Positions 467 to 16,637 of a DNA stretch of 64,000 nt are shown in pieces (position 1 is the stretch's first letter; every line of letters starts with the position of its first letter). Origin of the DNA: a phage. The notes beneath the pieces are model-generated. The model did no database searches. It saw only the letters and a program-made list of their open reading frames with translations, and was not told the origin of the DNA. The stretch lies in sequence record PZ347661.1; one strand, 5' to 3'. A program made the position numbers and the translations under genes.

Positions 467-473
467 GTCATCA

Positions 474-749: not shown

Positions 750-755
750 AACCCG

Positions 756-770: not shown

Positions 771-794
771 GTTGGATACAATTAGGAGACAACC

Positions 795-1010: not shown

Positions 1011-1015
1011 AAACC

Positions 1016-1030
1016 AGACGCTCCGCGTCT
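1016..1030 (+). promoter_or_regulatory. Hairpin promoter candidate of the N4 virion-RNAP type (stem AGACGC/GCGTCT, loop TCC, then TATGG)
   Basis: Perfect 6-bp inverted repeat with 3-nt loop; same pattern as 756 and 5877. Confidence 0.6.
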
Positions 1031-1166
1031 TATGGAGTGCGTAGCACAACCTTCGAAGAAGGTTATGATGTAAATGCATCCACTAATCATTGAACTTTTA
1101 TCCTTTTGTTTGGGTGTTCTCACCGACGAGTTCACCCGTAAATCACATAAATCTGGAGAGTACAAA

Positions 1167-1547
1167 ATGTCTATTCAAAAATTCACTTTCGGTCAATCTA
1201 ACGCTGCTGCTACCACTGCTAAAGCTGATAAACCAAAAGCTCAGTTATGGCTGAACATTGGTTATGTAGCTAATGAAGGCTCTGATGATGAGAAATTCAT
1301 CTCTCTGCCTACTGGTATTCCACTGGATACTCAGGAACCACTGCCTACTAACAGTAGCAATGCTGACTTCCGTGCTATGCGTTGTGCACAGAACGATTTG
1401 CTGGAACAGTTAATCGCATATGCTCAGAACCTGGAACCAGGTGAAGAAGGTATCATTAACCTGCAAGTTCAACTTCGTCGTGTGAAAGCAGAGGCTGCTG
1501 ACATCCCAGCAGACGAGAATAAATATGCTCGTAAACTGACTTTCTAA
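1167..1547 (+). CDS. hypothetical early protein (126 aa); track ORF 1074 trimmed to the ATG with GGAG RBS
   Basis: ATG at 1167 preceded by CTGGAGAG; position would fit N4 early transcription factors but no motif supports that. Confidence 0.55.
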
Positions 1548-1557
1548 TCAACTACTA

Positions 1558-1586
1558 GACTCCCTTCGGGGAGTCTTTTATTTTTA
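1558..1586 (+). terminator. intrinsic terminator (GACTCCC-TTCG-GGGAGTC plus T tract)
   Basis: 7-bp stem, tetraloop, TTTTATTTTT tail. Confidence 0.7.
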
Positions 1587-1690
1587 ACTATGCGAAAGGC
1601 TATTTCTACTTTTTGAGTATCTTTAGACGAAGGGTACTGAAACAGTAACCAGATAGATATAGATTTATATTAGATGAAGGAGTAACCATT

Positions 1691-1876
1691 ATGCGTACAA
1701 TTTGTAACCGTTATAATTCACAGAAGATGATTGTTATGTTGCAACCATGGGGCAGTAAGATGACACTAAATGCACGTTGGCAGGTATCTGTAAAAGATGA
1801 GAATGGTCACTGCTATGACCACTTCTTTGTAACTAAACCTACTCGTAAACAAATTCGTAAACTTCATAAGGCATAA
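1691..1876 (+). CDS. hypothetical protein (61 aa)
   Basis: ORF with GAAGGAG RBS. Confidence 0.5.
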   Translation: MRTICNRYNSQKMIVMLQPWGSKMTLNARWQVSVKDENGHCYDHFFVTKPTRKQIRKLHKA

Positions 1877-1880
1877 GACT

Positions 1881-2099
1881 ATGTTGGACTTCATTGCGTT
1901 TGTAATACTCTGTTATGTGCTATATCGCCTACGTGGTTACATCCTCAATGGAGCCAAGTGGGTAAGAACTAAGCTGGTACTTATCTGTAAGTTACCTGTT
2001 GTATTCGTTAAGTGTCTGTTTGCTTCCATCATAGCCAAAGAAGTTCGTAAGCAACTCTGGGCTAAGGAAGCAGAAGAGTTTGCAAAGAGGAACCAGTGA
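1881..2099 (+). CDS. hypothetical small hydrophobic protein (72 aa)
   Basis: ORF tightly packed after previous gene; weak RBS. Confidence 0.4.
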   Translation: MLDFIAFVILCYVLYRLRGYILNGAKWVRTKLVLICKLPVVFVKCLFASIIAKEVRKQLWAKEAEEFAKRNQ

Positions 2100-2278
2100 T
2101 ATTCACTAACATAGAAGATGCCATTGAAGAATGTATCTTTCGTAGGTATCACACTGGTATACAGAAACGACACTATGGTGTTGTACAACTCAATGGCTAT
2201 CAAATGGTTGTAAGAATTGTACGTAAGAGTAAACCTTTTAACTTTATGTGGAGTACTAAATCATGCGTAAGTCATTAA
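2096..2278 (+). CDS. hypothetical protein (60 aa, GTG start)
   Basis: ORF with non-ATG start overlapping previous stop. Confidence 0.3.
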   Translation: MIFTNIEDAIEECIFRRYHTGIQKRHYGVVQLNGYQMVVRIVRKSKPFNFMWSTKSCVSH

Positions 2279-2391
2279 TCATGGGAACCAAAGAAGACGT
2301 ACAAAAGATGAAAGAGCGTCTGGCTGCTAAGAAACAGACATCTGAACCAGTACGTAAGATTGTTACCTTCAATCATCCGTGTATCAAATAA
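2263..2391 (+). CDS. hypothetical small basic protein (42 aa, below the ORF-track cutoff)
   Basis: ATG with GGAG about 9 nt upstream; ends right before a terminator. Confidence 0.3.
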   Translation: MRKSLIMGTKEDVQKMKERLAAKKQTSEPVRKIVTFNHPCIK

Positions 2392-2396
2392 CAAGG

Positions 2397-2427
2397 AGTC
2401 CTCCATTAGGGGGACTTCTATTTTTTA
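2397..2427 (+). terminator. intrinsic terminator (8-bp stem, ATTA loop, T tract)
   Basis: AGTCCTCC-ATTA-GGGGGACT followed by TCTATTTTTT. Confidence 0.6.
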
Positions 2428-2502
2428 TTCCTGAATAGTTAGACCCGAAGGGTCAACCGTACGAAGTACGGTTAGATATGTATTTAAATAGGAGAAATAA
2501 CC

Positions 2503-2820
2503 TTGAATGAAATTGTTTGTATACTTCCTCAATCAGCTAAGATAGCTGACCGGAATATACGTATCCACTTACCATTCCCATTAAGCAATCCATTCACTCG
2601 TAATGAAAGAACCACAGTAGAAGACGTGGAGGTAGCTTATGAGGCTTACCTTCGTAATCGTCTTATTAGTGGTGACAAGTTAATTACAGCAGAGATGGAA
2701 AGGATTGCATCCTTTGTAACAGATAGTACAGGTAAGCCTGTTGGCTTAATTGGTACTGAATCTGATGTGAATGTTATTCGTAAAATATTAATGGAGGCAC
2801 TAAGTGAACAACCTCAGTGA
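2503..2820 (+). CDS. hypothetical protein (105 aa, TTG start)
   Basis: ORF with AGGAG 8 nt upstream of TTG. Confidence 0.45.
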   Translation: MNEIVCILPQSAKIADRNIRIHLPFPLSNPFTRNERTTVEDVEVAYEAYLRNRLISGDKLITAEMERIASFVTDSTGKPVGLIGTESDVNVIRKILMEALSEQPQ

Positions 2821-3037
2821 TGTAATTGTAGGTAATGAGATATTCGTTGACCGAAAAGGTTATGCCCGAATTAAACTAAAGGGTACTAACAGAACTATTG
2901 TTCGTAAGGTGTACTCTAAACCTTTTAGCAATTTCTCTATTGATGAAGTACGTATTAATAACAGGATGTACTTCATAGATAGTAAAGTATCTGTATGTCA
3001 TACAGATGGTAAAACCTCTCTTGAATATACTTACTAA
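2804..3037 (+). CDS. hypothetical protein (77 aa, GTG start)
   Basis: ORF overlapping previous gene end. Confidence 0.35.
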   Translation: MNNLSDVIVGNEIFVDRKGYARIKLKGTNRTIVRKVYSKPFSNFSIDEVRINNRMYFIDSKVSVCHTDGKTSLEYTY

Positions 3038-3049
3038 GGAATAAACAAA

Positions 3050-3271
3050 ATGTTGTTCAGCACTAATTATGGTATTTGCCCGATTTGCAATAAAGGAAGA
3101 GGAGTTGCTAATCATAAGAAGTGTAGTCGTATTCTACAGAAACAACGGAACCAGAAAGAATGGGATAAGATATTGGAAAACCAACACAAAGATGAGTTCA
3201 AGAAGACAGCTGTTAAGGCATCTACTCAGCTCATTCGTCGTACTAACTTCATAGAAGGTTATCAGAAATGA
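3050..3271 (+). CDS. hypothetical protein with N-terminal CPICNK motif (73 aa)
   Basis: ORF with AAGGA RBS; Cys pair may indicate a zinc ribbon. Confidence 0.5.
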   Translation: MLFSTNYGICPICNKGRGVANHKKCSRILQKQRNQKEWDKILENQHKDEFKKTAVKASTQLIRRTNFIEGYQK

Positions 3272-3624
3272 AACTAATCGTAGCTGGTGGAAGAGACTTC
3301 GTAGATACCAATCGTATGATTGAGGAATTACAGAAGTTAGTAAATTCAGGGAATATACCTGAATGCCCAGAATTAGTATGTGGCATGGCTCGTGGAGCAG
3401 ATATATTAGCTTTCCGTCTATGGAAATCTGCAAATATGCAGATACATGTATTCCCTGCTGAATGGGATACCTATGGCAAGTCTGCTGGATTCCGTAGGAA
3501 TAAAGAAATGGGTGAATTTGCAGATGCTGCTGTATGTTTCTGGGATGGTAAATCCAAAGGAACCAAGCACATGATTGATATCATGAATAGGCTTAATAAA
3601 CCTGTATACGTTGTGAGGTACTAA
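3268..3624 (+). CDS. Rossmann-like SLOG/DUF2493-like protein (118 aa)
   Basis: LIVAGGRDF ... CGMARGADILA pattern resembles LOG/DprA-type nucleotide-binding folds; family assignment is an inference. Confidence 0.5.
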   Translation: MKLIVAGGRDFVDTNRMIEELQKLVNSGNIPECPELVCGMARGADILAFRLWKSANMQIHVFPAEWDTYGKSAGFRRNKEMGEFADAAVCFWDGKSKGTKHMIDIMNRLNKPVYVVRY

Positions 3625-3882
3625 ATGATTATTACATATCCTACAGGCAAGAACGTAGATTATATGGGACATACTATCCAAGTACCACATTGGGTTAAGT
3701 ATATAGCTTTATATACTCGGCAATATAAAAGTGCTAATACCTCATTAATAGGATTCTCTAAGAAACCTAAGCTAACAGAAAACAATATCTGGGTATCCTC
3801 TGGGAGACAAGAAGAGATTGGTTTTTGTGATTTGAGTATTATCGATAATAACGTTTACCTAACGCTGGAGAAAGTAGCATGA
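3625..3882 (+). CDS. hypothetical protein (85 aa)
   Basis: ORF in tight operon. Confidence 0.45.
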   Translation: MIITYPTGKNVDYMGHTIQVPHWVKYIALYTRQYKSANTSLIGFSKKPKLTENNIWVSSGRQEEIGFCDLSIIDNNVYLTLEKVA

Positions 3883-4070
3883 ATATTGAAAATTATGAAA
3901 TCACTTTAGTAACAGCAGATAGTAAAACTGTGATTAAAAAACAATTAAATAATGACCCCGAGATGCTTAACTGGGTTGCAGAGCAATTTGCTGATGTTAA
4001 CTCAGCACAGGTAACCATACGGAATATGTCAGGAAAAGTAGTAGCATTTACAGGCAAGGAGCCAGTATGA
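3879..4070 (+). CDS. hypothetical protein (63 aa)
   Basis: ORF, start overlaps previous stop. Confidence 0.45.
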   Translation: MNIENYEITLVTADSKTVIKKQLNNDPEMLNWVAEQFADVNSAQVTIRNMSGKVVAFTGKEPV

Positions 4071-4381
4071 AAACTATTTTAGTAGTCCATGATTCTACAT
4101 TTACTGATGTAGATAAGATGATGCGTAATATTGATTATGTATCTCAGACAAGCCAAGCATTCAATGAAGAGTTTACTCTGTACTGTAATGCTGAATCACC
4201 ACTGGTTCCTATCCTTAAGGAATCAGGTCTACCATTCTCTACAGAGAACTTCCCGGAAGAACCGGACTATGTAATCTCATTTATCTATGACTTACATGAT
4301 GGTTCTGAAACCAGTGAATTAGCTATGAACCAGTGGCGTAGTAAACGTCCTGTGTTCGCATTTCAGGTACTTAAGCCATGA
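4067..4381 (+). CDS. hypothetical acidic protein (104 aa)
   Basis: ORF, ATGA overlap coupling. Confidence 0.5.
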   Translation: MKTILVVHDSTFTDVDKMMRNIDYVSQTSQAFNEEFTLYCNAESPLVPILKESGLPFSTENFPEEPDYVISFIYDLHDGSETSELAMNQWRSKRPVFAFQVLKP

Positions 4382-4620
4382 TATATGAAGAATATTACGT
4401 ATTTAAAAAAGGAGATGAGTTTATAGCCATGCCTGATGATTACATTGATTGGCATACAACTCCAGTATTAAGCGAAGCATTTTCCGTACCTAACCTAGAA
4501 GAGGTTAATAAAGTAATGAACGGGGTAATGTTAACTAGAGGACTAGCTTATAAAATAGACGCATTAGAAGGAACTACTGTATGTAAAGTAGTTACATCTA
4601 TTGAGGTACTTAAACCATGA
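4378..4620 (+). CDS. hypothetical protein (80 aa)
   Basis: ORF, overlap coupling. Confidence 0.5.
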   Translation: MIYEEYYVFKKGDEFIAMPDDYIDWHTTPVLSEAFSVPNLEEVNKVMNGVMLTRGLAYKIDALEGTTVCKVVTSIEVLKP

Positions 4621-4997
4621 AGATTATGTCATTAGGTGACGACACCAATGCTTTACTAGGTGTATCTGCACGCCCAATCATCATTGTTAATAAACATCAC
4701 GGTAAATCCGGTGAGTATATTGGACGTGGCTCACCATTAGGCAATCCATTCGTTATTGGTAAAGACGGTTCGAGAGAACAGGTTATAGCCAAGTATCGAG
4801 TATGGCTTAATGAACAAATTATGAGAAAGAATCCAGTTGTACTGGATGAACTTAATCGTCTTGGTAATAAAGCCATTGACGAGAAAGGATTAGCCTTACA
4901 GTGCTTCTGCTATCCAAAACCATGTCATGGTGAGGTTATTAAAGAGAAGCTAGTAAAGGCTATGTATAACTACTTTGTAGAAAACCCAAAAGGATAA
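4617..4997 (+). CDS. DUF4326-like protein (126 aa)
   Basis: GRGSPLGNPF motif; family assignment from memory, needs HMM confirmation. Confidence 0.5.
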   Translation: MKIMSLGDDTNALLGVSARPIIIVNKHHGKSGEYIGRGSPLGNPFVIGKDGSREQVIAKYRVWLNEQIMRKNPVVLDELNRLGNKAIDEKGLALQCFCYPKPCHGEVIKEKLVKAMYNYFVENPKG

Positions 4998-5000
4998 TTT

Positions 5001-5360
5001 ATGAAAGAAATCCTAGTATTCACTACTAATACACTAGGGCAGCATACCAATGCTGCTGCCAAGCTAGCTTATAAGAAGCATGGTGCTCGCTGGGGTATGG
5101 CCTATGGTCATTACGGTAATAGCTTTGCCATTCCAGTAAGGGATGGCAGTGGTAACCGAATTAAAGAAGGTGCTATCTATGGCTTCGTTGAAGGCTTTAT
5201 TTCCTATGCATCTACTAATCCTCAGTGGGATTTCAAAGTAATGGGGGATGACTTTCTGGACCCATACCTGTTCAATAATGTCACTGGCAATGTGCTATTG
5301 CCAGAAGCATGGCGTAAATACTTAGGTGATGCTTACAACTACTGGGGAACCTCCTCATGA
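5001..5360 (+). CDS. hypothetical protein (119 aa)
   Basis: ORF with AAAGGA RBS. Confidence 0.55.
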   Translation: MKEILVFTTNTLGQHTNAAAKLAYKKHGARWGMAYGHYGNSFAIPVRDGSGNRIKEGAIYGFVEGFISYASTNPQWDFKVMGDDFLDPYLFNNVTGNVLLPEAWRKYLGDAYNYWGTSS

Positions 5361-5533
5361 CTAAAAAAGAGCGCAGTCAATTACAATCCTTAATACGTAA
5401 ACATGTAGCAGCTCAAGTTGCTCTATCATGGTCTGGTTCTCAAGATCCAGAAGACAGAGAAATAATTGAAGCCAATGCAGAGTATGCAAAGCGTAAATTA
5501 TACAATTGGATTTCAATGAGAGTAGACCAATAA
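5357..5533 (+). CDS. hypothetical small protein (58 aa)
   Basis: ATGA overlap with previous stop fills a gap without ORF-track entries. Confidence 0.35.
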   Translation: MTKKERSQLQSLIRKHVAAQVALSWSGSQDPEDREIIEANAEYAKRKLYNWISMRVDQ

Positions 5534-5607
5534 ATGGAGTTACTAACTTATTTAATAGTCCTATGGTCCATAGGTGGAACCACTGTATGGCTTATACCGG
5601 AGATACT

Positions 5608-5871
5608 ACCATGACATATGAAGAACTGTGGTCTGCTCAAGTCAGAGCCAGAGCACTCACACGGCATGACATCTATTGTGCATTACAAAATGAATTAAAG
5701 AGTCGTACTAAACTAGGCCACATATCTGGCTTCATCAAAATACCTATGACTAGCCTAGTCTGGCCTTATCAGAAGAAAAGTAATGAGTTTAATGGTAATG
5801 GTCTGCATGTACGCATCGACTACATTGGTAATGAAAATAGTATTCGTATTACCTTTTGGACCAAACGTTAG
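5608..5871 (+). CDS. hypothetical protein (87 aa; track ORF 5506 trimmed to ATG with GGAG RBS)
   Basis: ATG at 5608 preceded by CCGGAGATACTACC; start uncertain. Confidence 0.35.
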   Translation, partial: TMTYEELWSAQVRARALTRHDIYCALQNELKSRTKLGHISGFIKIPMTSLVWPYQKKSNEFNGNGLHVRIDYIGNENSIRITFWTKR

Positions 5872-5876
5872 GTAAT

Positions 5877-5891
5877 AGCTGCTCCGCAGCT
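5877..5891 (+). promoter_or_regulatory. Hairpin promoter candidate of the N4 virion-RNAP type (stem AGCTGC/GCAGCT, loop TCC, then TTTGG)
   Basis: Perfect 6-bp inverted repeat with TCC loop, immediately upstream of the RNAP II genes. Confidence 0.55.
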
Positions 5892-5924
5892 TTTGGTTAT
5901 TAATCATATTTAGGAGAATAAGCG

Positions 5925-6743
5925 ATGTACTCATCTATTGAACATCAGAAGCAACTTGAAATCCTTTTCAACAAGAATCAATTACTCCCTCGCATGAGGA
6001 AGGAATTCGAGGACTCCGAAGAAATTGACTTTAAGGCATTTGCTGCCTATTTAGAAATTGATTATAAGCTGCTCATTGATGCAATGGTGCAGATTGCCCT
6101 ACATAAACGTGCTGACATTCAGACTATGATTGGCTCTCTCATGAGTCACTCAGATGATGCTCAGTACATCGCTGACTGTCTGTATAAGATGGCAGAGAAT
6201 GACTGCTTCAACTATGACCCTACCATCGACAAGTTCGGTGTTATCTATGAGATTAGTGAAGATGTTCAGATGGAACTGGAAGCATTCCAGTATCCTTTGC
6301 CTATCGTAAGTGCTCCTAAGCCTGTTAAGTGTAACCGTGATACTGGTTACTACGAAAGCAGAGGTAGCATCATCCTCAAGAAGAACCATCATGAGATGGA
6401 TGTCTGTCTTGATCACATCAACCGCATGAATAACCAACGTCTCTGCATTAACTGGGACGTTGCTAACTATGTAAAAGACTCTCGTCCTAATATGGATAAA
6501 CCTAAAGAGGGTGAAACCCGTCAGGACTATGAGAAACGTGTCAAAGCCTTTGAGAAGTACAGCCGTACAGCTAAGGAAGTAATGGAGTTAGTGACCAAGG
6601 AAGGTAATAACTTCTCTCTGGCTCACAAATATGACAAACGTGGGCGTACATATGCCTGTGGCTACCACATCAACTATCAGGGAACCAGTTACAACAAAGC
6701 TGTTCTGGAGTTCGCTGATAAGGAGCTAGTAAACAATGATTAA
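5925..6743 (+). CDS. phage RNA polymerase II small subunit (N4 gp15-like, 272 aa)
   Basis: Size and position match the N4 two-subunit RNAP II (recalled sizes 269 and 404 aa); adjacent to the large subunit, which carries polymerase motifs. Confidence 0.65.
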   Translation: MYSSIEHQKQLEILFNKNQLLPRMRKEFEDSEEIDFKAFAAYLEIDYKLLIDAMVQIALHKRADIQTMIGSLMSHSDDAQYIADCLYKMAENDCFNYDPTIDKFGVIYEISEDVQMELEAFQYPLPIVSAPKPVKCNRDTGYYESRGSIILKKNHHEMDVCLDHINRMNNQRLCINWDVANYVKDSRPNMDKPKEGETRQDYEKRVKAFEKYSRTAKEVMELVTKEGNNFSLAHKYDKRGRTYACGYHINYQGTSYNKAVLEFADKELVNND

Positions 6744-6846
6744 TCATCGTGCAGTAGCTGACTTCTACGCTCACAGAGAACTAGTGTTAAAACGTATTAA
6801 CGAAGCTCTCAAACGTGAGGCAGAGGCCAAACGTAAACGTAAATAA
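6736..6846 (+). CDS. hypothetical small basic protein (36 aa) between the RNAP II subunit genes
   Basis: ATG with AGGAGC RBS; very short, speculative. Confidence 0.25.
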   Translation: MINHRAVADFYAHRELVLKRINEALKREAEAKRKRK

Positions 6847-6900
6847 ATCCAATAAGCAGGCTCTCCATAGTGGGGAGCCAAGAAGCAAAAGGAACATAAA

Positions 6901-8118
6901 ATGCAACTGTTAACCGCTAAAGAATACCTGAAAGTAGATATCGCCAATAACTATGGCTTAGATAAGAAGACATGGGATGAACGTATTGCCTGGTTCGATG
7001 AGAACGAAGCTAACCTGCTTAATCTGGTAGATGAAGCTGAAGATTCTGCTCTGTTCTTTGCAGGTGTAAATGCATGGAAAGACATGAAAGCTGGTAAACC
7101 TATCGGTTATGCCGTAGCTCTGGATGCTACATCATCTGGCTTACAGTTACTGGCTTGCCTGACTGGTGACCGTTCTGCTGCTGAACTGTGTAACGTAGTT
7201 AACTATATGGGTGAGAATGGTAAACCCTTACGTCGTGATGCTTATACAGTTATCTATCACAAGATGCTGGACATCCTTGGTGAAGCATCACGTATTAAAC
7301 GTAGTGACACTAAGCAGGCAGTTATGACTGCATTCTACGGTTCAGAAGCCAAGCCTAAAGAAGTATTCGGTGAAGGTATTCGTCTCAAGACTTTTGAGAA
7401 TGTAATGGAAACTGTTGCTAGTGGTCCTTGGGCACTTAACAAGTTCTTACTGCAATGTGGTAATCCTGATGCTAACCGTTACGTATGGGTACTTCCTGAC
7501 AACTTCCATGCTGTCATTAAGGTCATGGTTCCAGAAGTACAGACTGTTAACTTCTTAGGTAAACCATTCGACATCACTCGTATGGTTCAGGGTACTGAAG
7601 AGAAGACTCGTATGCTCTCTGCTAACATTACCCACTCTATTGATGGGATGGTAGTACGTGAGATGCTGCGTCGTTGTAACTTCGACCCTAAACTGGTTGC
7701 CTATGTACGTGAACTATGTGATATCGGGCCAAGCAATTATCCTGCTATCGAAGGGAACCTGGAAATGACTATGGAAATTTGGAATCATTATGAGAAGTCT
7801 GGGTTCCTGTCACTATCTATTCTGGACTACCTTGACCCGAATACCATTGCATTGGTAGACCGTCAGGTAATAGCAGATATGATTGACACTCTGCCTAAGA
7901 AACCATTCCCTGTAATGACTGTACATGACTGCTTCCGTTGTCATCCTAACTACGGTAATGACCTGCGTCGTCAGTACAATCAGATTCTGTCTGATATTGC
8001 TAAGAGTGACCTACTGGGCTTCATCTTGTCTCAGGTACTAGGACAAGAGTTCTCCGCTGGTAAGCTGGATGACAGCCTCTGGCAGGACATTCTTGAAACA
8101 GACTATGCATTAAGTTAA
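6901..8118 (+). CDS. phage RNA polymerase II large subunit (N4 gp16-like, 405 aa)
   Basis: KQAVMTAFYGS resembles motif B and TVHDCF motif C of T7-like single-subunit RNAPs; size matches N4. Confidence 0.8.
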   Translation: MQLLTAKEYLKVDIANNYGLDKKTWDERIAWFDENEANLLNLVDEAEDSALFFAGVNAWKDMKAGKPIGYAVALDATSSGLQLLACLTGDRSAAELCNVVNYMGENGKPLRRDAYTVIYHKMLDILGEASRIKRSDTKQAVMTAFYGSEAKPKEVFGEGIRLKTFENVMETVASGPWALNKFLLQCGNPDANRYVWVLPDNFHAVIKVMVPEVQTVNFLGKPFDITRMVQGTEEKTRMLSANITHSIDGMVVREMLRRCNFDPKLVAYVRELCDIGPSNYPAIEGNLEMTMEIWNHYEKSGFLSLSILDYLDPNTIALVDRQVIADMIDTLPKKPFPVMTVHDCFRCHPNYGNDLRRQYNQILSDIAKSDLLGFILSQVLGQEFSAGKLDDSLWQDILETDYALS

Positions 8119-8125
8119 TAAACTA

Positions 8126-8159
8126 GCCTCATTCCTTCGGGAGTGAGGCATATTTTTTG
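8126..8159 (+). terminator. intrinsic terminator (10-bp stem with TTCG loop, T tract)
   Basis: GCCTCATTCC-TTCG-GGAGTGAGGC followed by ATATTTTTT. Confidence 0.65.
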
Positions 8160-8175
8160 CTTGGAGGTAATAACT

Positions 8176-8358
8176 ATGCTAATCCCTTTTGAAGTAATCT
8201 CTCAGCTAATACTGATAGTTTTATCTGTACTGGTTCTGTCTACAATAGTTCATGCCCACAAATCTAAGTTTGCTTGCTACTGTTATGGAGCATACTCGCT
8301 AGGCTGCTTTGTAATGGCAGGATGGATAGCTTTTGCTGTCTACTGTGTAAACAACTAA
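8176..8358 (+). CDS. small membrane protein (60 aa)
   Basis: ATG with GGAGG RBS; two hydrophobic segments. Confidence 0.4.
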   Translation: MLIPFEVISQLILIVLSVLVLSTIVHAHKSKFACYCYGAYSLGCFVMAGWIAFAVYCVNN

Positions 8359-8386
8359 CCCTCTTAACGGAGGGTTTTTATTTTTA
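8357..8386 (+). terminator. intrinsic terminator
   Basis: AACCCTC stem, GAGGGTT partner, TTTTATTTTT tail. Confidence 0.6.
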
Positions 8387-8432
8387 TTCATCATGTATAC
8401 TAATCCTGCTATTTACTTATGAGGAAATTGAT

Positions 8433-9266
8433 ATGCCAACTTTGAAAGTAGGTTTTAACAAAACCACTAATGTTGCAACTGTACTGGATGCCAGTGGTTC
8501 TATCCCAGGTGGTTCCGTAGAAGTAGGAACCTTTGTACACCCAGATGCTACCTACCCAGATAGCTTAGTTATCTATCATGGTGTTCGTGACCTGCTGTAT
8601 AAACGTTCTGCTAAAGACCCTAGTAAAGAAGGCTCCTGGCCTAACAACATCGTAGATATGCAGTCTATCTCTATTGATATGAAAGCTACTCCACGACTGA
8701 TTATTGCTACTAAACTGCCTCGTGTAATCTCTGCTATCGAAGGTGAAGACATTAACTGGCACGTTGATGTAGCAGGTGGTAAAGCACCATTTACTTATAA
8801 ATGGCAATTCAAAGCTAATACCGCTGGTGCAGCATTCGCTGATATTAGCTCCAGTACTAACCCATCTGCTGCTACTGCAACATTGACTCTTAATGATGTA
8901 ACAGCTTCTTCTGCTGGTACTTATAAAGTGATTGTTACTGATGCTAATGGAACCACGGTAGAAGATGAGTCGCTGCTGGCTGTAGGTTATTATGAAGCAA
9001 GCTCTCTGGTAGCTACTCCTGCTTCACTGGCTCTGTCTGTTGCTGCTGATACTACTGATGGCAAAACCGTAACTATTGTTGCTATGCCTGTTGGTTCTTC
9101 TTCCGGTGCTTTGTCTATCAAGACTGCTCCAGATTCTGGTCGTGCTACGGCTACCATTGCTGGTAACGTACTGACAGTTAAACCAGTGGCTGCTGGTGAT
9201 GCTACTTCTGTAGTAGTTACCAATGGTACGGTAGATGTAACAATCCCTGTTACTGTTGCAGAGTAA
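8433..9266 (+). CDS. Ig-like domain protein, possible capsid decoration protein (N4 gp17-like, 277 aa)
   Basis: Thr/Ala/Val-rich beta-sandwich-like repeats (YKWQFKANTAG..., SAGTYKVIVTD); start trimmed to ATG with GAGG RBS; N4 encodes its decoration protein in this region. Confidence 0.55.
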   Translation: MPTLKVGFNKTTNVATVLDASGSIPGGSVEVGTFVHPDATYPDSLVIYHGVRDLLYKRSAKDPSKEGSWPNNIVDMQSISIDMKATPRLIIATKLPRVISAIEGEDINWHVDVAGGKAPFTYKWQFKANTAGAAFADISSSTNPSAATATLTLNDVTASSAGTYKVIVTDANGTTVEDESLLAVGYYEASSLVATPASLALSVAADTTDGKTVTIVAMPVGSSSGALSIKTAPDSGRATATIAGNVLTVKPVAAGDATSVVVTNGTVDVTIPVTVAE

Positions 9267-9288
9267 GAGTATTTCTTTTTGTGATTAT

Positions 9289-9313
9289 AGCCCTCCTTAG
9301 TGAGGGCTTTCTT
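9289..9313 (+). terminator. intrinsic terminator
   Basis: AGCCCTC-CTTAGT-GAGGGCT then TTCTT. Confidence 0.5.
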
Positions 9314-9333
9314 GTATATATAGGAGAGTAAAA

Positions 9334-9648
9334 ATGACCCAGAAATTACGTGTATGGCACATCCCCCAAGTGCCAATGAAGGCATTTCATGTAGAGACTG
9401 ATAGTCTTCAGGAAGCTGTTAAGATTAAGAATGCGCTAGCAGACTACGATCTATTCCAATATGAGAACAACGTCAAAGGCGATTATGCTAATGCTAACGG
9501 TATTGAGATGTGGGATGAGTCCCTCACTGACCAAGACCTTATTGATATGGAATTGGATGACCGTTGGGTAGATTGGTATATTGAAACTGAAGAATATTTC
9601 TTTGATGACCCAGAAGAGTATCTGAATTATCTAGCCAAGCAAGTATGA
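9334..9648 (+). CDS. hypothetical acidic protein (104 aa)
   Basis: ORF with GGAGAG RBS. Confidence 0.55.
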   Translation: MTQKLRVWHIPQVPMKAFHVETDSLQEAVKIKNALADYDLFQYENNVKGDYANANGIEMWDESLTDQDLIDMELDDRWVDWYIETEEYFFDDPEEYLNYLAKQV

Positions 9649-9694
9649 TTGCTTTATTTGGGGCTATAAACCCTGAAATAAAACCCTCAAGTTT

Positions 9695-9725
9695 GACCTC
9701 CCTATTGAAGGGAGGTCTTTTTTTG
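9695..9725 (+). terminator. intrinsic terminator
   Basis: GACCTCCC-loop-GGGAGGTC followed by TTTTTTT. Confidence 0.7.
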
Positions 9726-9749
9726 ACTTAAACATCCTGGAGCCAGGAA

Positions 9750-9938
9750 ATGTATAAAGAGATTGCATTTTTCTCATTCTTACTTGGTGGTTTAATAGGT
9801 GCAGGAATTGTAGCTATTTCTAATACCTACTTTGGTTCTACTCCAAACTCTCTAACACAAACCCTCAAGCATGAATGTGAATTGAATATCCCTCGTAATC
9901 AAAACTGTGTAATGCAGTTCGTACCGGAGAAAAAATGA
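9750..9938 (+). CDS. small membrane protein (62 aa)
   Basis: ORF with hydrophobic N-terminal helix. Confidence 0.45.
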   Translation: MYKEIAFFSFLLGGLIGAGIVAISNTYFGSTPNSLTQTLKHECELNIPRNQNCVMQFVPEKK

Positions 9939-10195
9939 ATATTCATAACCTACGTTTGGTTGAAAAACTGTATGAAGAATACAACGACAACCGGCAGCAA
10001 TTAGCTAGTTTGAAGAAGTCACCACATATGGTGAAAGTATCATTCAATGATACGGATTTAGGACTACAAGCCCGTACAAGAATACTTCCTGAACTACTGT
10101 CCTTTTATCAAAAGAGGATTGCTGTTTTAGAAAAACGCTTTGAGCATTTAGGCGTAGATTTATCACCACTCCCAGATGAAGGAGAAGAAGAGTGA
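9935..10195 (+). CDS. hypothetical protein (86 aa)
   Basis: ORF, overlap coupling. Confidence 0.5.
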   Translation: MNIHNLRLVEKLYEEYNDNRQQLASLKKSPHMVKVSFNDTDLGLQARTRILPELLSFYQKRIAVLEKRFEHLGVDLSPLPDEGEEE

Positions 10196-10401
10196 AAGTA
10201 ACAAATCGTTCTGAGAACAATGAGGTAACTTTCGGTGATGTAGAGCCTGCTAATGGTTTTATTTATAACCAGACAGTGTGTCTAAAGATTCACTTACCTG
10301 AAGGTAAACCTGCTGCTGTTGCTGTAGAAACTGGCAAATCATTCTATCTATCAGCAAATACATATGTAACACCAATAAACCTGGAAGGATATTACCTTTG
10401 A
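10192..10401 (+). CDS. hypothetical protein (69 aa, GTG start)
   Basis: ORF overlapping previous stop. Confidence 0.4.
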   Translation: MKVTNRSENNEVTFGDVEPANGFIYNQTVCLKIHLPEGKPAAVAVETGKSFYLSANTYVTPINLEGYYL

Positions 10402-10583
10402 AACTTACCCAGTCCCAAGCAATCTTCCTTCGTATGGTTCAAGGTGGTTCTGCCACCAGCAACCGTAATAACAAAACCGCACAGTCTCTTAAGAAGCTGG
10501 GCTTAGTACAGTTCAATACTGGTCTTGGGTGGTCATTAACCCCTATCGGTGTACTTCAACTTAACGAAATGAAAGGTAACTAA
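10398..10583 (+). CDS. hypothetical protein (61 aa, TTG start)
   Basis: ORF with GGAAGGA upstream. Confidence 0.35.
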   Translation: MKLTQSQAIFLRMVQGGSATSNRNNKTAQSLKKLGLVQFNTGLGWSLTPIGVLQLNEMKGN

Positions 10584-10913
10584 ATGAAAACTTTACTTAA
10601 AGGTATTGCAGTAGCCGCACTGATAGCTTTGGCCCCAAGTGCACAAGCAATTGAACCAGAACCAATTCTGGAAGGTGCTCAGGCTTATCTGGATGACACC
10701 CGTGATGCGTTCGGGCAAGGATTCTTCATGGGCAGTATGATCTCTTATATCGAGAGTACAAATAATTGCGTTCCTGAAGGTGTTAAGTATTCAGTCATTC
10801 TGCCTAAGATTGTCAAAGTAGTTATTTATGACTCTGCAATTCTCAAATTGAAGAATACATCTCAAATTGTTGTGTACTCAGTACACAAGGCATATCCCTG
10901 CACTAAATCTTAA
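10584..10913 (+). CDS. secreted/periplasmic protein with signal peptide (109 aa)
   Basis: N-terminus MKTLLKGIAVAALIALAPSAQA is a typical Sec signal with AQA cleavage site. Confidence 0.55.
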   Translation: MKTLLKGIAVAALIALAPSAQAIEPEPILEGAQAYLDDTRDAFGQGFFMGSMISYIESTNNCVPEGVKYSVILPKIVKVVIYDSAILKLKNTSQIVVYSVHKAYPCTKS

Positions 10914-10947
10914 TCAGTAATTCCATTAGCTTTAGGAGAGTAAGTAA

Positions 10948-12000
10948 ATGGCAAGCATTGACTCCTTGACTGTATGTAATTCACGTCAAGCTCGTAACTT
11001 TATTATCCGTGCCCTGAAAGCAGGTAACGTACCATTCCTGACTTCATCACCGGGCATGGGTAAATCTGCAATCATTCGTTCTATTGCAGAAGAATTTGGT
11101 ATGAAGCTGATAGACCATCGTCTGTCTACTTCTGCTCCAGAAGACCTTTCTGGCTTACCATTCCGCAATGGTGACCGTGCAGAGTTTATCCCATTCGCTG
11201 ACTTATTTCCTATTGAAGGGGATGCTGTACCGAAGGGTTATAATGGCTGGCTCCTGTTCCTCGATGAGTTCAACTCAGCTAAGAAAGAAGTAGTAGCTGC
11301 TGCATACAAACTGATTCTCGACCGTATGACTGGTCAGAAAAAACTACATCCTAATGTGATGATTGTCTGTGCAGGTAACAAAGCTACTGACCGTGCCATT
11401 GTTAACCCACTGGGTACTGCAATGCAGTCCCGTGTGGTTCACTTCGAAATGGAACTTAACTTCGACATCTTTGTTGAAGACGTAATGATTCCTCAGCAAT
11501 GGGATGAACGTCTGGTTGCATTCTTACATGCTAACCCCGGTTACCTGCATGACTTCGACCCGGCACATAAGAACAAAACATTCTGTTGTCCTCGTACCTG
11601 GGACTTTGTTAACAAAGACCTCAAGAACTTGCCAGAAGGTGCTCTGCCTGATGAAGATTCTATCTACTATGCAGGTCACGTTACTGCTGGTAAGGCTACA
11701 GAATTTGTTCAGTTTACCCAGGTGTACAATCGTATCATTACGATTGAGAAGGTAGTCAAAGACCCACTGGGCTGTGCACTACCGGATGATAACAACCTGT
11801 GTTGGGCTACTGTTAACCATCTGGCTAACAAAACTACTGAAGAGAACTTTGTTGATGTTCTTCGGTATATTGAACGCTTTAAAACGTTCACCCATAGGAT
11901 TCTATACTTCCGTACAGTAGGCAATGCATTACCAGATCTTCAGGCTACCCCTGAATGGCGTAAGGCTGCTGCTAATATCTCTCGCTACATTCACGGATAA
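10948..12000 (+). CDS. AAA+ ATPase, MoxR-like (350 aa)
   Basis: Walker A SPGMGKS and Walker B LLFLDEFN. Confidence 0.75.
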   Translation: MASIDSLTVCNSRQARNFIIRALKAGNVPFLTSSPGMGKSAIIRSIAEEFGMKLIDHRLSTSAPEDLSGLPFRNGDRAEFIPFADLFPIEGDAVPKGYNGWLLFLDEFNSAKKEVVAAAYKLILDRMTGQKKLHPNVMIVCAGNKATDRAIVNPLGTAMQSRVVHFEMELNFDIFVEDVMIPQQWDERLVAFLHANPGYLHDFDPAHKNKTFCCPRTWDFVNKDLKNLPEGALPDEDSIYYAGHVTAGKATEFVQFTQVYNRIITIEKVVKDPLGCALPDDNNLCWATVNHLANKTTEENFVDVLRYIERFKTFTHRILYFRTVGNALPDLQATPEWRKAAANISRYIHG

Positions 12001-12007
12001 TCACAAC

Positions 12008-13183
12008 ATGAACCAATTTCCTCAGCACACACTTAGTGATGAACAACTCATGCGTGAGTATGACCGTATTCAGGCCCAAGCCTTCCTGGGCAAGTCTGCT
12101 GCGTTCTTTGGTTCATTACTGTGTAGTCTTAAATTCTCATGGAAACGTGAGGATTGTCCCACTGCATGTACTGATGGGATAGAACTTCATTTCAACCCAG
12201 ACTTCTTTATCTGGATGTGTCCAGATGTAAGAGAAACAGTATTAATGCACGAACTATGGCATGTAGCATATCTACATGACATCCGTCGTGGAAGCCGTGA
12301 CCCGGAAGTCTGGAACCAGGCATGTGACCACTTCATTAACCTTCAGTTAGAAGAGGATGGTTACAAGTTCACTGGTATCGACAAGGGCATTTGCAAAGAC
12401 CCTAAATATAAAGATTGGGTCGAAGAAGACATCTACGATGACCTGATGAAGAACCCTCAGAAAAGGCAGAAGCCGTCAGGGGGTGCTGGAGCAGGTCTTG
12501 CTGGCGACATGAAATCCCCTACTTCGGGGCAGTCCCAGGGTGCTGTCGTCAACAACGTAGTACGTGCAATGCAGAGCCAGAAGATGGCTGGTGGACAGAT
12601 GCCCGGTAAGGGTGCTGGTCGTATGGAAGAGGTTATTACCCAATTCCTTAAACCAGTAGTTCCCTGGCAGGAAGTTCTGATAAACTTCTTTACCGACATT
12701 GATGACACCCATTATACGTGGGCCAGACCTAATCGTCGTTACACTGACATCTATCTACCTTCCATGGAAGATGATGAAGGACGCTTACGACACTTAGCCT
12801 ACTTTGAGGATGTATCTGGTTCCATTAGTAGTGATGACTCTCTGCGTTTTAACTCAGAGGTTGCTTACGTTAAGAGCCAATTCAATCCTAAGAAGATGTC
12901 CTTAATTACCTTCGACGATGTTATCCAGGAAGAAATAGACATCACTGAAGAAGATACTTTCGAAGAGATTAAGATTACTGGTCGTGGTGGTACAAACCTG
13001 GAACCAGTACGCGAATGGATTATTAAGAATAAGCCAACCGCTGCAATCATATTCTCCGATATGTATGTTCGCCCAATGGAAGAATTACCATTTGATATCC
13101 CCATCATCTGGTGTGTTCTGAATAATCCCAATGCTACCGTACCTTTTGGGGAGGTAGTTCATATCCCTAAAGGAATGAAATAA
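12008..13183 (+). CDS. zincin-like (HExxH) plus VWA-domain protein (392 aa)
   Basis: MHELWHVAYLH motif, Gly/Gln-rich linker, C-terminal DxSGS MIDAS-like motif (FEDVSGSISS); start trimmed to ATG at 12008. Confidence 0.6.
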   Translation: MNQFPQHTLSDEQLMREYDRIQAQAFLGKSAAFFGSLLCSLKFSWKREDCPTACTDGIELHFNPDFFIWMCPDVRETVLMHELWHVAYLHDIRRGSRDPEVWNQACDHFINLQLEEDGYKFTGIDKGICKDPKYKDWVEEDIYDDLMKNPQKRQKPSGGAGAGLAGDMKSPTSGQSQGAVVNNVVRAMQSQKMAGGQMPGKGAGRMEEVITQFLKPVVPWQEVLINFFTDIDDTHYTWARPNRRYTDIYLPSMEDDEGRLRHLAYFEDVSGSISSDDSLRFNSEVAYVKSQFNPKKMSLITFDDVIQEEIDITEEDTFEEIKITGRGGTNLEPVREWIIKNKPTAAIIFSDMYVRPMEELPFDIPIIWCVLNNPNATVPFGEVVHIPKGMK

Positions 13184-13689
13184 TGGTTGTTAACGGTAAT
13201 TCTCTATATCGTTCCTCTCAGTTGCTGGATGTTCCAGACCATAAGGTATCTGAACACGGTGTAAGCTATGGATTAGGTGAAGCTGGTTATGATATTCGTA
13301 TCAAACAAGATATTACCTTCTATCGCTTATTTGGGTTGATTCCAATGGTGAAGGTCGTTGATGGAAATCAAGTATCACGCCATCTCGGTAAGTTCACATT
13401 GGCTTCAGCAATTGAGAAGTTCAACATGTCCCCATCCTGTGTAGCTATCGTTCACGATAAGTCTACCTGGGCAAGACGTGCATTATCTGTGTTCAATACC
13501 GTAATAGAACCAGGATGGAAAGGGTATCTTACCCTCGAACTGGTCTATCATGGTCGCAAGAAATTGCATATCCCAGCTGGTTCTGGGATAGCTCAAGTAT
13601 TATTTCATCTGGTTCAGGAACCTGCTAATTACAATGGCAAGTATATGAACCAGGAAAACAAACCAGTAGCTGCAAGAAGCAGCAAATAA
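13183..13689 (+). CDS. dCTP deaminase / dUTPase-fold protein (168 aa)
   Basis: IEPGWKGYLTLEL motif typical of the Dcd/dUTPase superfamily. Confidence 0.6.
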   Translation: MVVNGNSLYRSSQLLDVPDHKVSEHGVSYGLGEAGYDIRIKQDITFYRLFGLIPMVKVVDGNQVSRHLGKFTLASAIEKFNMSPSCVAIVHDKSTWARRALSVFNTVIEPGWKGYLTLELVYHGRKKLHIPAGSGIAQVLFHLVQEPANYNGKYMNQENKPVAARSSK

Positions 13690-13698
13690 GGAAACAAC

Positions 13699-13908
13699 AT
13701 GTCAGTATTTCAAGTAACTCATGCAACCTCAGATGTACGTTTAACCATTAATGCTGCAAATGTAATTGCAGTAGAACAGATTCCACAGTCTGACCATGCA
13801 CGCGTCATATTTGTAGATAATAACTATATAGAAACCAAAGAAACCTATCGTTCAGTACGCAATTACCTGAAGAAAGCTCTTGCTCCTGCAAGCAAAGACG
13901 CTGAGTAA
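13699..13908 (+). CDS. hypothetical protein (69 aa)
   Basis: ORF with AGGAAAC RBS. Confidence 0.5.
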   Translation: MSVFQVTHATSDVRLTINAANVIAVEQIPQSDHARVIFVDNNYIETKETYRSVRNYLKKALAPASKDAE

Positions 13909-13920
13909 GTAGCTGCCTAA

Positions 13921-13946
13921 ATAGCCCAACATAGTTGGGCTATTTG
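13921..13946 (+). terminator. terminator-like hairpin
   Basis: TAGCCCAA-CATAG-TTGGGCTA then TTTG; short T tract. Confidence 0.45.
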
Positions 13947-13981
13947 TGAAGAAACTAACTCAACCTCACATAGGAACCATC

Positions 13982-14224
13982 ATGGAATCTTTAGCAGCAA
14001 TCCTTGTTTTCTTATTCATATTGGCTGTATACCTTATCCCTACTATCATTGCTTTTTCACGAGGCCATGTCTCTAAGTGGGGCATTGGTGTACTCAATAT
14101 CGTATTAGGCTGGTCACTGGTATTCTGGGTAGTAGCACTGATTTGGTCACTGTCCAACAAAGGGCAGAACCAGGTTACAAATGTAACCGTTGTTCAAACC
14201 AATGGTGGCAGTAAAACAGAGTAA
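13982..14224 (+). CDS. membrane protein with two TM helices (80 aa)
   Basis: ATG with AGGA RBS; hydrophobic segments. Confidence 0.5.
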   Translation: MESLAAILVFLFILAVYLIPTIIAFSRGHVSKWGIGVLNIVLGWSLVFWVVALIWSLSNKGQNQVTNVTVVQTNGGSKTE

Positions 14225-14296
14225 CTAATCGTAATAGTCTCATGAGGCTATTACTGGAAGTTACTTCCAGCTCATTGCTTATCCATCTCCTAATCC

Positions 14297-14323
14297 AAGC
14301 CCACCTAACCCGTGGGCTTTTTT
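14297..14323 (+). terminator. intrinsic terminator
   Basis: AAGCCCAC-loop-GTGGGCTT followed by TTTTT. Confidence 0.65.
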
Positions 14324-14339
14324 AATTACAGGTACTCTT

Positions 14340-14720
14340 ATGTCAAACAGACGAAATGGTAAGTCTATCCTGCAAGGACTGGACTTCAGTAAGCTGGAAC
14401 AAACTGCAATGCTTGCTTTAGGTAAAACTATCCATGACCAAGTGGAGAGTAAAATTGAATTAGATCTTTATGCAACAATGCAGACTCTTATTCAGAAAAA
14501 ATGGATTACTAGCAGACTTTTTCCTTCATACATTCCCCCAGAACCTCATCTGAAATCTAAGGTAGACCGAATCATAGATAAGTTCTGGCTTAACCCATAC
14601 GGGGATGATATGCAACTTTATCTGACTCAAATACAAAAGAATCCTCATACTAAGGATGTGTTCAAGGGTAAAAGTACTACCCATCACTACCCCTGGTATA
14701 GAAGAGGTAGTAAATACTAA
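14340..14720 (+). CDS. hypothetical protein (126 aa)
   Basis: ORF. Confidence 0.5.
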   Translation: MSNRRNGKSILQGLDFSKLEQTAMLALGKTIHDQVESKIELDLYATMQTLIQKKWITSRLFPSYIPPEPHLKSKVDRIIDKFWLNPYGDDMQLYLTQIQKNPHTKDVFKGKSTTHHYPWYRRGSKY

Positions 14721-15163
14721 TGCGTATCCCATTCCTAAGAAAAAGGGAACGAAATCCTGTTCTTTATAATAAAGGCATAGAGGATGAGTATGCACTCAAC
14801 AGTAAAGCTCGTTCCTACACAACAAAATTATTTATGGGGACTAAAAACCCTGATAGATTACTGGACTTTGTTTTTGAACAAGTCTTTATCATATACAGCT
14901 TAGCTATGACTGCTGGTTCACAAGAAGTAAGTGATAAGGCAAGAGATGCTCTCTGTATGCTCCGTAAAGAGTATGAAGCCCTCATGTATGAAGACTTGTA
15001 CTCCTTTAAAAAAGAAACCGCTGTAGCGTGTTCTGTGGCTCTTACTGAAGGTGTAGCAGTATTACAAGAACTACCTCGTAGTGAGTTTAAGCTGGTATAT
15101 GTTCAGGTTAAGAGAATCACAGAGACTAGAAGTGGTATCACCAACTATCTAAGGTCATTCTAA
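14720..15163 (+). CDS. hypothetical protein (147 aa)
   Basis: ORF, coupled to neighbours. Confidence 0.5.
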   Translation: MRIPFLRKRERNPVLYNKGIEDEYALNSKARSYTTKLFMGTKNPDRLLDFVFEQVFIIYSLAMTAGSQEVSDKARDALCMLRKEYEALMYEDLYSFKKETAVACSVALTEGVAVLQELPRSEFKLVYVQVKRITETRSGITNYLRSF

Positions 15164-16107
15164 TGATTAAGGCATCAGTAATTGCAGATTCTGTTCATCC
15201 AGAAACAGGAACTCGTATAACAACCTTTGAATTGGTTTATCCCCGATTCATTCACAGTGAGTTTATGACTCACCGTGTATTCAACCGTAATGCTTCGAGC
15301 AGTCGTGCTATTCCTACCTCTAAGCTTATCGAACAGGTTCGTAATGAACCAGTGATGCCAAGTCACTGGGGCAAGAACCAGAAAGGTATGCAAGCAGAGG
15401 AAGAACTCACTCCTATGGAGATTGGGGATGCCAAGTTTATCTGGGATAACGCTGCATCTGCTGCTGCTGTGTACGCTGAACAACTACGCCGTGGTCAGGT
15501 ACATAAGCAGATTGTTAACCGTATTCTGGAACCCTTCACGCATATTCGTGTAGTGGTAACTTCAACTAGCTGGGCTAATTTCTATGGACTGCGTGACCAC
15601 AAAGATGCACAACCAGAGATTCGTGAACTGGCTCAAGCAATGCGTAAGGCACATGAAGAAAGCACACCAAGAGCACTATCATATGGGCAATGGCATATGC
15701 CGTACATTACTCATATTGATCGTGTTGGGGCTTACAATTTCTGCAAACGCAATCGAGTTACACGCGATGAACCAAGTGATGCAGAAGTACATGGACTACT
15801 TCTTAAAGTAAGTGCTGCACGCTGTGCTCGTGCTTCCTATAACAACTTTGAAGGGCGACCTTCTACTATCGAAGAAGACCTTGGCTTATTTGCTAAGTTA
15901 GTGGAAAACCAACCTATTCATGCTTCTCCAACGGAACATCAAGCTACGCCTATGAACCTTAGTGAGAAGTACGTGAATAACATGAACCCAGTTACATGGG
16001 AACAAGGTGTTACATCCATGGATAAAGAAGGGAATCTGTACTCAGGTAACCTGCTTCACTTTATCCAATTCCGTAAATTAATTCCTGGTGAGACTATTAC
16101 TGAATGA
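15163..16107 (+). CDS. thyX: flavin-dependent thymidylate synthase ThyX-like (314 aa)
   Basis: EFMTHRVFNRNASSSRAIP resembles the ThyX RHR-x7-S signature (THR variant); inference from motif only. Confidence 0.55.
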   Translation: MIKASVIADSVHPETGTRITTFELVYPRFIHSEFMTHRVFNRNASSSRAIPTSKLIEQVRNEPVMPSHWGKNQKGMQAEEELTPMEIGDAKFIWDNAASAAAVYAEQLRRGQVHKQIVNRILEPFTHIRVVVTSTSWANFYGLRDHKDAQPEIRELAQAMRKAHEESTPRALSYGQWHMPYITHIDRVGAYNFCKRNRVTRDEPSDAEVHGLLLKVSAARCARASYNNFEGRPSTIEEDLGLFAKLVENQPIHASPTEHQATPMNLSEKYVNNMNPVTWEQGVTSMDKEGNLYSGNLLHFIQFRKLIPGETITE

Positions 16108-16343
16108 AAAAACTAGCTCTATACGCAATGCTAATTAGTACCTTACTTACACTAACCTACGCATACAAAGTTGCCTTTGTCGTAGAAACAGATATGCAGT
16201 TCATTCGAGCTAGTATTCTGTTCTTTGTAAGTGAAATTGGTTTATGGTGTGTCTACTACTTTGCTCGTGATTATGAAGCGATTCGTGAGCATGATGAAGC
16301 AAAGGAACGAATGAGACGCTTCATTGAAGAAAATAGTAAGTAA
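16104..16343 (+). CDS. small membrane protein (79 aa)
   Basis: Two hydrophobic helices; ATGA coupling. Confidence 0.5.
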   Translation: MKKLALYAMLISTLLTLTYAYKVAFVVETDMQFIRASILFFVSEIGLWCVYYFARDYEAIREHDEAKERMRRFIEENSK

Positions 16344-16348
16344 ACTTA

Positions 16349-16376
16349 AGACCTCCTCCGGGAGGTCTTTTTTTTG
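16349..16376 (+). terminator. intrinsic terminator
   Basis: GACCTCC-TCCG-GGAGGTC followed by TTTTTTTT. Confidence 0.7.
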
Positions 16377-16403
16377 GTTTCAATAACTGTCCCAGGAGGA
16401 CTT

Positions 16404-16628
16404 ATGGCAAGTTGGTATGCAACTATGTTGGAGAAAGACTCCAATGGAATATACAGAGAATCCGCAGGCAGTTTTAAAAACATCTGTATAGATGGGCGTT
16501 TATGCAAAATTAATGCAATAGACACTGCGGAAGAAATCCTGTCTAAAGAATCAGGGTATGCAGGATTCAAGTTAGAAAAACTTAGTAAAGCCTGGGATTA
16601 CAGAAATCCCATTGTTATTAAAAAATAA
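16404..16628 (+). CDS. hypothetical protein (74 aa)
   Basis: ATG with AGGAGG RBS. Confidence 0.45.
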   Translation: MASWYATMLEKDSNGIYRESAGSFKNICIDGRLCKINAIDTAEEILSKESGYAGFKLEKLSKAWDYRNPIVIKK

Positions 16629-16637
16629 GGAAACAAT

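Follow-up and report, generated by a model that had tools for sequence, protein, structure and literature searches.

The capsid of coliphage N4, determined at 2.45 Å, is a T=9 shell decorated by gp17, a 32-kDa virion protein ('32 kD VP'), with three monomers per asymmetric unit lying flat around the quasi-2-fold axes (PMC11768535). Domain I of gp17 is found on every quasi-3-fold axis and domain II on the P-domain of a capsid protein, while domain III is flexible, solvent-exposed and in minimal contact with the capsid (PMC11768535). According to the authors of this structure, gp17 reinforces the capsid and the accessory function of domain III is uncertain; part of the support for the stabilising role comes from mutant experiments that the same work cites as unpublished (PMC11768535). 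A review states that N4 gp17 has no effect on infectivity and adds stability upon exposure to DNase I and EDTA, and it lists the protein under both 'stability' and 'host adhesion' (PMC7602432). In Shigella phage Moo19, which also has a T=9 capsid, gp28 is listed as one of the virion structural proteins by a study that made use of mass spectrometry, and its residues 1-183 were modelled on the capsid, the authors noting that proteins of this kind possibly have no stabilising effect on capsids (PMC11654681).

Here, we consider a stretch of phage DNA of 64,000 nucleotides (PZ347661.1, hereafter the window), in which a rightward open reading frame at 8433-9266 codes for a protein of 277 residues (ATG at 8433, stop codon at 9264-9266). 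The window is a Gamaleyavirus (G7C-like) genome, belonging to the subfamily Enquatrovirinae of the Schitoviridae, and its bases 1-25000 are collinear from genome position 1 with those of the Escherichia phages ShWW44, St11Ph5, PE007, IME11 and others, at about 91-94% identity. Rightward genes fill roughly the first 37 kb and leftward genes follow from 38 kb, a 3611-aa ORF of the leftward arm being located at the position of the virion RNA polymerase. The product of 8433-9266 is, with high confidence, the Gamaleyavirus capsid decoration protein, ortholog of N4 gp17, G7C gp17 and Moo19 gp28, with a mechanism of the N4/Moo19 type. The gene itself is already known, since the G7C and St11Ph5 records annotate it as 'capsid decorating protein'.

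A ribosome-binding site, GAGGA (8421-8425, + strand), is present 7 nt upstream of the ATG and is invariant across seven aligned phages. Position 8433 is regarded as the true start because the homologues all begin with MP(T/V)LKV, as does the solved N4 chain. The longer, TTG-started frame that a mechanical ORF list places from 8274 is an artefact running through the 3' end of the upstream gene and the terminator. The encoded protein is rich in Thr, Ala and Val (11.9%, 13.4% and 11.6%, respectively), as the original prediction had put it; together these residues make up 36.8% of the sequence, compared with 22.2% in the long ORFs of the window, and about 49% (48.9%) of the C-terminal third, namely, the last 92 residues.

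Homology searches bear out the initial proposal of a virion surface protein that is Ig-like and corresponds to the decoration protein of N4. Residues 1-277 match positions 1-310 of the PHROG 2973 profile, labelled "Hoc-like head decoration" (E 2.4e-101), and phmmer aligns them with residues 1-279 of the N4 chain 9e99_J in the PDB (E 2.8e-122). Full-length matches were obtained to the '32 kDa protein' chains of the three N4 virion entries 9e99, 9lbz and 9ld7, and to 9d7z_J, the 'Ig-like domain-containing protein' of the Moo19 capsid (E 2.3e-91). By tblastn, the gene is present in 125 phage records, with identities of 92-95% for ECBP1, pSb-1, St11Ph5 and Bp4, 79% for G7C, 74% for N4, about 60% for Moo19, and 45-51% for Erwinia phages. 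More than 50 Gamaleyavirus records carry it at 90-95% nucleotide identity, many of them under the name 'capsid decorating protein'. The closest sequences share 93.9% nucleotide and 95% amino-acid identity with it, neither the phage collection nor the protein database containing an identical one.

The identity with N4 gp17 (74%) extends over the full length, the two proteins having 277 and 279 residues, respectively, and the same three domains, with a domain II-III linker that is three residues shorter here. With G7C gp17, St11Ph5 gp17, ECBP1_0021 and the proteins of other Gamaleyaviruses, the differences are only allelic. Moo19 gp28, a virion structural protein of about 60% full-length identity, differs in that only residues 1-183 have been modelled. 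T4 Hoc and T5 pb10 resemble this group as Ig-like, non-essential capsid surface proteins, a likeness echoed in the 'Hoc-like' PHROG label, but share no full-length homology with gp17-type proteins; weak sequence matches were found to Hoc (3shs, E 0.16 over 36 residues) and to the decoration proteins 8zvi and 5lxk (E about 2e-3). Furthermore, T4 Hoc binds the capsid through its C-terminal domain and projects outward from the hexamer centres, whereas in gp17-type proteins the N-terminal domain serves as the anchor and the molecule lies flat around the quasi-2-fold axes (PMC11768535). Membership of the T4 Hoc family was thus rejected, the match being marginal and the anchoring module located at the opposite end, so that the likeness is one of function and fold class only.

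With regard to domain organisation, three parts can be delineated in the protein: an N-terminal, putatively capsid-anchoring domain I (residues 1-88, 8433-8696), whose role is taken from the N4 cryo-EM structure (PMC11768535); an Ig-like domain II of the I-set/Ig_3 type (residues 89-185, 8697-8987), its presumed role having the same source; and a Thr/Ala/Val-rich beta-sandwich domain III (residues 186-277, 8988-9263), which is predicted to be all-beta with pLDDT values of 89-97. The 88/89 boundary was estimated from the secondary structure of the model. Domain II is the only one recognisable as Ig by sequence. It matches Pfam Ig_3 at residues 98-169 (E 2.2e-6, 28.5 bits, slightly below the gathering cut-off of 30), Pfam I-set at residues 93-175 (E 2e-4, 21.8 bits, also below its cut-off of 23.7) and PHROG 4069 at residues 78-181, and a PF13927 match is precomputed for many homologues that are 85-95% identical to the decoration protein. 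No Pfam family matches domains I and III, and BLASTP reveals no internal repeat between domains II and III (E 2.5). The Ig-like repeat signatures of the original prediction therefore hold as a genuine Ig signature at residues ~93-175, but not as a repeat at the sequence level, and the claim has to be narrowed accordingly.

The three-domain beta-sandwich character is visible only in structure. An AlphaFold2 model built with 23 homologues reaches a mean pLDDT of 87.9 and does not fall below 50 in any segment; its three blocks are essentially all-beta. When this model was compared with the PDB by Foldseek, the top matches were N4 gp17 chains (E 1e-40), then Moo19 gp28 (E 5e-21), followed by three-Ig fragments of multi-Ig proteins such as titin, Dscam and contactin, aligned across 210-235 columns. 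The global TM-scores of the model against the N4 chains are only 0.43-0.50 because the inter-domain angles differ; domains I and II together match better, with target-normalised TM-scores of 0.63-0.65 (9lbz_q, 9d7z). Structure prediction by AlphaFold2 and Foldseek thus yields the Ig-like fold that had been anticipated.

In more distant Schitoviridae, including Klebsiella phage KP8 and phages of Achromobacter, Xanthomonas, Stenotrophomonas and Pseudomonas putida, tblastn matches are restricted to residues 1 to ~60-90, and KP8 gp26 (L005 2501-3016) is a shorter version of 171 residues. From such alignments, the family appears to combine a conserved capsid anchor, domain I, with exchangeable outer Ig-like domains. 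The naming of orthologs in databases is inconsistent, as they are also recorded as 'fibritin', 'neck whiskers protein', 'kappa-carrageenase precursor' or 'multidomain protein with S-layer homology', for instance in PD205, ST4, U1G, IME11, PGN829.1, phiAxp-3 and ECBP1. The labels 'fibritin', 'neck whiskers' and 'kappa-carrageenase' are wrong, since they conflict with the solved location of gp17 on the capsid. A copy of 90% identity (protein P0061) has been deposited under Enterococcus faecium, as a hypothetical protein encoded on a contig of 2.76 Mb, and probably reflects contamination or a chimeric assembly.

The partner of the decoration protein would be the major capsid protein, an ortholog nearly identical to N4 gp56, with 399 residues and encoded on the minus strand at 55613-56815, which matches PHROG 1357 (E 1.9e-150) and, over its full length, the N4 chain 9e99_A (E 9.4e-247). 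Every defining feature of the N4 gp17 family that can be read from sequence and predicted structure is present: homology over the full length, three Ig-like domains, conserved synteny and the cognate gp56-type capsid protein. Homology to the N4 and Moo19 capsids of known structure suggests the following mechanism. A T=9 capsid of the HK97 fold would first be built from the gp56-type protein, and decoration monomers would then attach to the outside of this shell as three copies per asymmetric unit, arranged flat around the quasi-2-fold axes. Domain I would plug each quasi-3-fold axis and domain II would rest on the P-domain of a capsid protein, the two domains clamping neighbouring capsomers and thereby increasing resistance to stress. 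The flexible, Thr/Ala/Val-rich domain III would project into the solvent, its role probably being accessory and non-structural, for instance in weak adhesion to surfaces or glycans. Infectivity is expected not to require the protein. Capsid-surface presence, dispensability and added stability, known or reported for N4 gp17, are assigned here by orthology, and incorporation into the virion of the PZ347661.1 phage is likewise expected from the orthologs (cryo-EM for N4, cryo-EM and mass spectrometry for Moo19). The binding geometry is described differently for the two models, as supine monomers on quasi-2-fold and quasi-3-fold axes in N4 and as Hoc-like in Moo19, and its details may differ in the Gamaleyavirus clade.

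Other locations for this protein have to be weighed against the capsid surface. An attribution to the tail or neck, as a fibritin, neck whisker or fibre, derives from the labels 'fibritin protein', 'neck whiskers protein' and 'fibritin (wac) protein' carried by some close homologues, but these look like propagated weak Ig-domain similarities. In three independent entries for N4 and one for Moo19, the orthologs are modelled as part of the capsid shell; there is no coiled-coil, the all-beta model has no long helices, and neither Pfam nor PHROGs returns a match to the fibritin family. This attribution is effectively refuted. It is also very improbable that the product is an Ig-like early or middle protein operating in the infected cell rather than in the virion, for example in envelope modification or superinfection exclusion. 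The gene does lie among non-structural genes, with a superinfection-exclusion-like gene downstream, but the sequence contains neither signal peptide nor transmembrane segment, and the orthologs of 60-74% identity belong to the virion, where their positions have been solved.

A capsid-located protein might, on the other hand, have been selected mainly for adhesion or dispersal through domain III, in a Hoc-like manner, with mucus, glycans or the cell surface as targets, rather than for cementing the shell. The minimal capsid contact of domain III in N4 and the uncertain, non-structural role that its authors give it (PMC11768535) are consistent with this idea, as is the placing of gp17 under 'host adhesion' in addition to 'stability' (PMC7602432). 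The conservation of domain I across Schitoviridae, together with outer domains that vary in number and sequence, would also fit an anchor carrying exchangeable display domains. However, domains I and II of N4 gp17 establish extensive, patterned inter-capsomer contacts (PMC11768535), gp17 reportedly adds stability against EDTA and DNase (PMC7602432), and there is no gp17 ortholog with a known binding ligand. Besides, domain III is not markedly more variable than the rest of the protein among close relatives (83-92% identity, compared with 84-95% in domains I and II), although it is the most divergent part towards proteins of the N4 clade (58-70%). We therefore regard adhesion as an unlikely main function, and retain the N4/Moo19-type decoration protein as the preferred reading.

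The position of the gene is also that of N4. The two subunits of an N4-type RNAPII, RNAP1 (5925-6743) and RNAP2 (6901-8118), matching PHROG 2166 and 2051, precede the decoration gene, and a superinfection-exclusion-like gene resembling that for P22 gp17, then an ATPase gene, follow it. The genes of the major capsid protein and of the portal protein (58430-60700, - strand) are located about 47 kb away on the opposite strand. It had been proposed that the gene stands beside transcription and replication genes and not in the late block, as in N4, and this arrangement, corresponding to gp15-gp16-gp17, is indeed observed. In N4, G7C, Moo19, KP8 and Erwinia phage Frozen, RNAP1 and RNAP2 are followed by none to three small ORFs and then by the decoration gene, an order that thus spans five genera and two subfamilies of Schitoviridae; the authors of the KP8 study described the position as 'usual for N4-like phages'. 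In N4, of the genus Enquatrovirus, gp17 directly follows the RNAPII genes gp15 and gp16, with the same flanking hairpins and a gp18-like gene downstream. Moo19 gp28 also comes directly after RNAP2. Synteny with G7C, St11Ph5, ECBP1 and the other Gamaleyaviruses is identical, including gp16.1, which corresponds here to a strongly hydrophobic ORF of 60 residues (8176-8358, + strand) between RNAP2 and the decoration gene. This small ORF belongs to PHROG 12530 (E 9e-36), as does G7C/St11Ph5 gp16.1, and is bracketed by two strong terminator hairpins (8126-8149 and 8357-8376). It is missing from N4 and Moo19, so that N4 differs from the window in lacking both the ORF and its own terminator.

The decoration gene has terminator-like hairpins on either side, in line with what was first suggested from the sequence. 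Upstream, an intrinsic-terminator-like element (8357-8386, + strand), which ends the small preceding ORF, consists of a hairpin at 8357-8376 with an 8-bp stem (-10.8 kcal/mol, z -3.8) followed by TTTTTATTTTTA. A hairpin and T-run occur in the same place in N4, G7C, Moo19, KP8 and Frozen. Downstream, a second terminator-like element (9289-9315, + strand) is formed by the hairpin AGCCCTCCTTAGTGAGGGCT at 9289-9308, with a 7-bp stem (z -2.7), and a weaker T tract, TTTCTTG; this hairpin is near-identical in N4, Moo19, St11Ph5 and IME11. The arm is generally rich in such structures, with 29 terminator-like hairpins in bases 1-20000 compared with 12.7 expected, and bases 44001-64000 contain 27 compared with 13.9.

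A further feature was noticed around the downstream hairpin. The succession of the hairpin AGCCCTCCTT(A)GTGAGGGCT, the leader TTTCTTGTATCTATAGGAGAGTAAAAATG and the start of the next gene, located at 9289-9333 in the window, at 4862-4910 in L001 and at ~3340-3388 in L003, is almost identical in N4, Moo19 and Gamaleyaviruses, with flanking proteins that are only 60-74% identical. This block suggests a constrained regulatory element for the gp18-like gene, which perhaps combines terminator, promoter and ribosome-binding site.

As for the transcription of the decoration gene, a candidate promoter element is provided by the -10-like hexamer TATACT (8396-8401, + strand), which aligns with CATAAT of N4, G7C and KP8 and in which the A, T, A and T columns of the alignment are invariant. 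This hexamer has no -35 partner, and a consensus scan found no full sigma-70 promoter upstream of the gene. In the clade of the window, as in N4, G7C and KP8, about 45 nt containing the -10-like hexamer separate the T-run from the ribosome-binding site. Moo19 and Frozen lack the hexamer, their upstream terminator running almost directly into the ribosome-binding site; because this leaves no room for a promoter, expression in these phages would have to come from read-through or from a start further upstream. N4 also differs from the window in that its CATAAT is followed by TAGGCA, which is missing here. The upstream motif of N4, G7C and KP8, TCATAATNNNTAGGCA, does not occur in the window, even when two mismatches are allowed, and the window's own upstream motif occurs in it only once; neither therefore represents a recognisable class of repeated promoters.

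Two further observations concern sequence motifs across larger parts of the window. Matches to the sigma-70 consensus promoter are depleted compared with shuffled sequences, both in bases 1-20000 (20 compared with 50.6±8.6) and in bases 44001-64000 (21 compared with 37.2±5.2). The octamer AAGACCTG is present at 11 sites for 2.5 expected, a number reached in none of 100 shuffles, with sites for instance at 20912, 21083 and 32681 on the plus strand and at 56036, 56294 and 58721 on the minus strand. As a block of N4 middle promoters, it was set aside, its sites being on both strands, mostly intragenic, and in no case near the decoration gene.

In the full-text literature that was searched, no report on the timing of transcription of gp17 or its orthologs was found. 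According to a review of the N4 RNA polymerases, the structural proteins of the virion are not made when rifampicin is present (PMC4496689), which leaves room for an expression of gp17 that depends on the host RNA polymerase and belongs to the late class. In LUZ7, the 'early' strand carries about one fifth of the late starts, and read-through of terminators is extensive and time-dependent; LUZ7 and LIT1, for which transcripts have been mapped, lack the decoration gene. Transcription by RNAPII, as part of middle transcription or through read-through, is the option towards which we lean slightly. A late-class promoter used by the host RNA polymerase is a plausible but less probable source, and any other mode of transcription seems improbable.

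The gene would form a monocistronic cassette between hairpin terminators, directly 3' of the RNAPII genes and oriented rightward like the early and middle genes. We can tentatively propose that this terminator-insulated, self-contained cassette is uncoupled from the late structural operons, either as a promoter island of the host RNA polymerase or by regulated read-through. In the former case, a rightward, late-class promoter of the N4SSB type, embedded in the early/middle arm, could be recognised by the host enzyme via the conserved -10-like hexamer. In the latter, phage RNA polymerases could pass the upstream terminator and dosage would be set in this way, as the promoter-less arrangements of Moo19 and Frozen imply.

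Beyond correct annotation, the significance of the finding is small, in that this phage carries a standard decoration protein of the N4 type. A small question of N4-type gene regulation concerns the mode and timing of transcription for a virion surface protein whose gene lies next to those of the RNA polymerase. If the proposal of an uncoupled cassette is true, a capsid surface protein would be timed differently from every other virion protein, and differently between genera.
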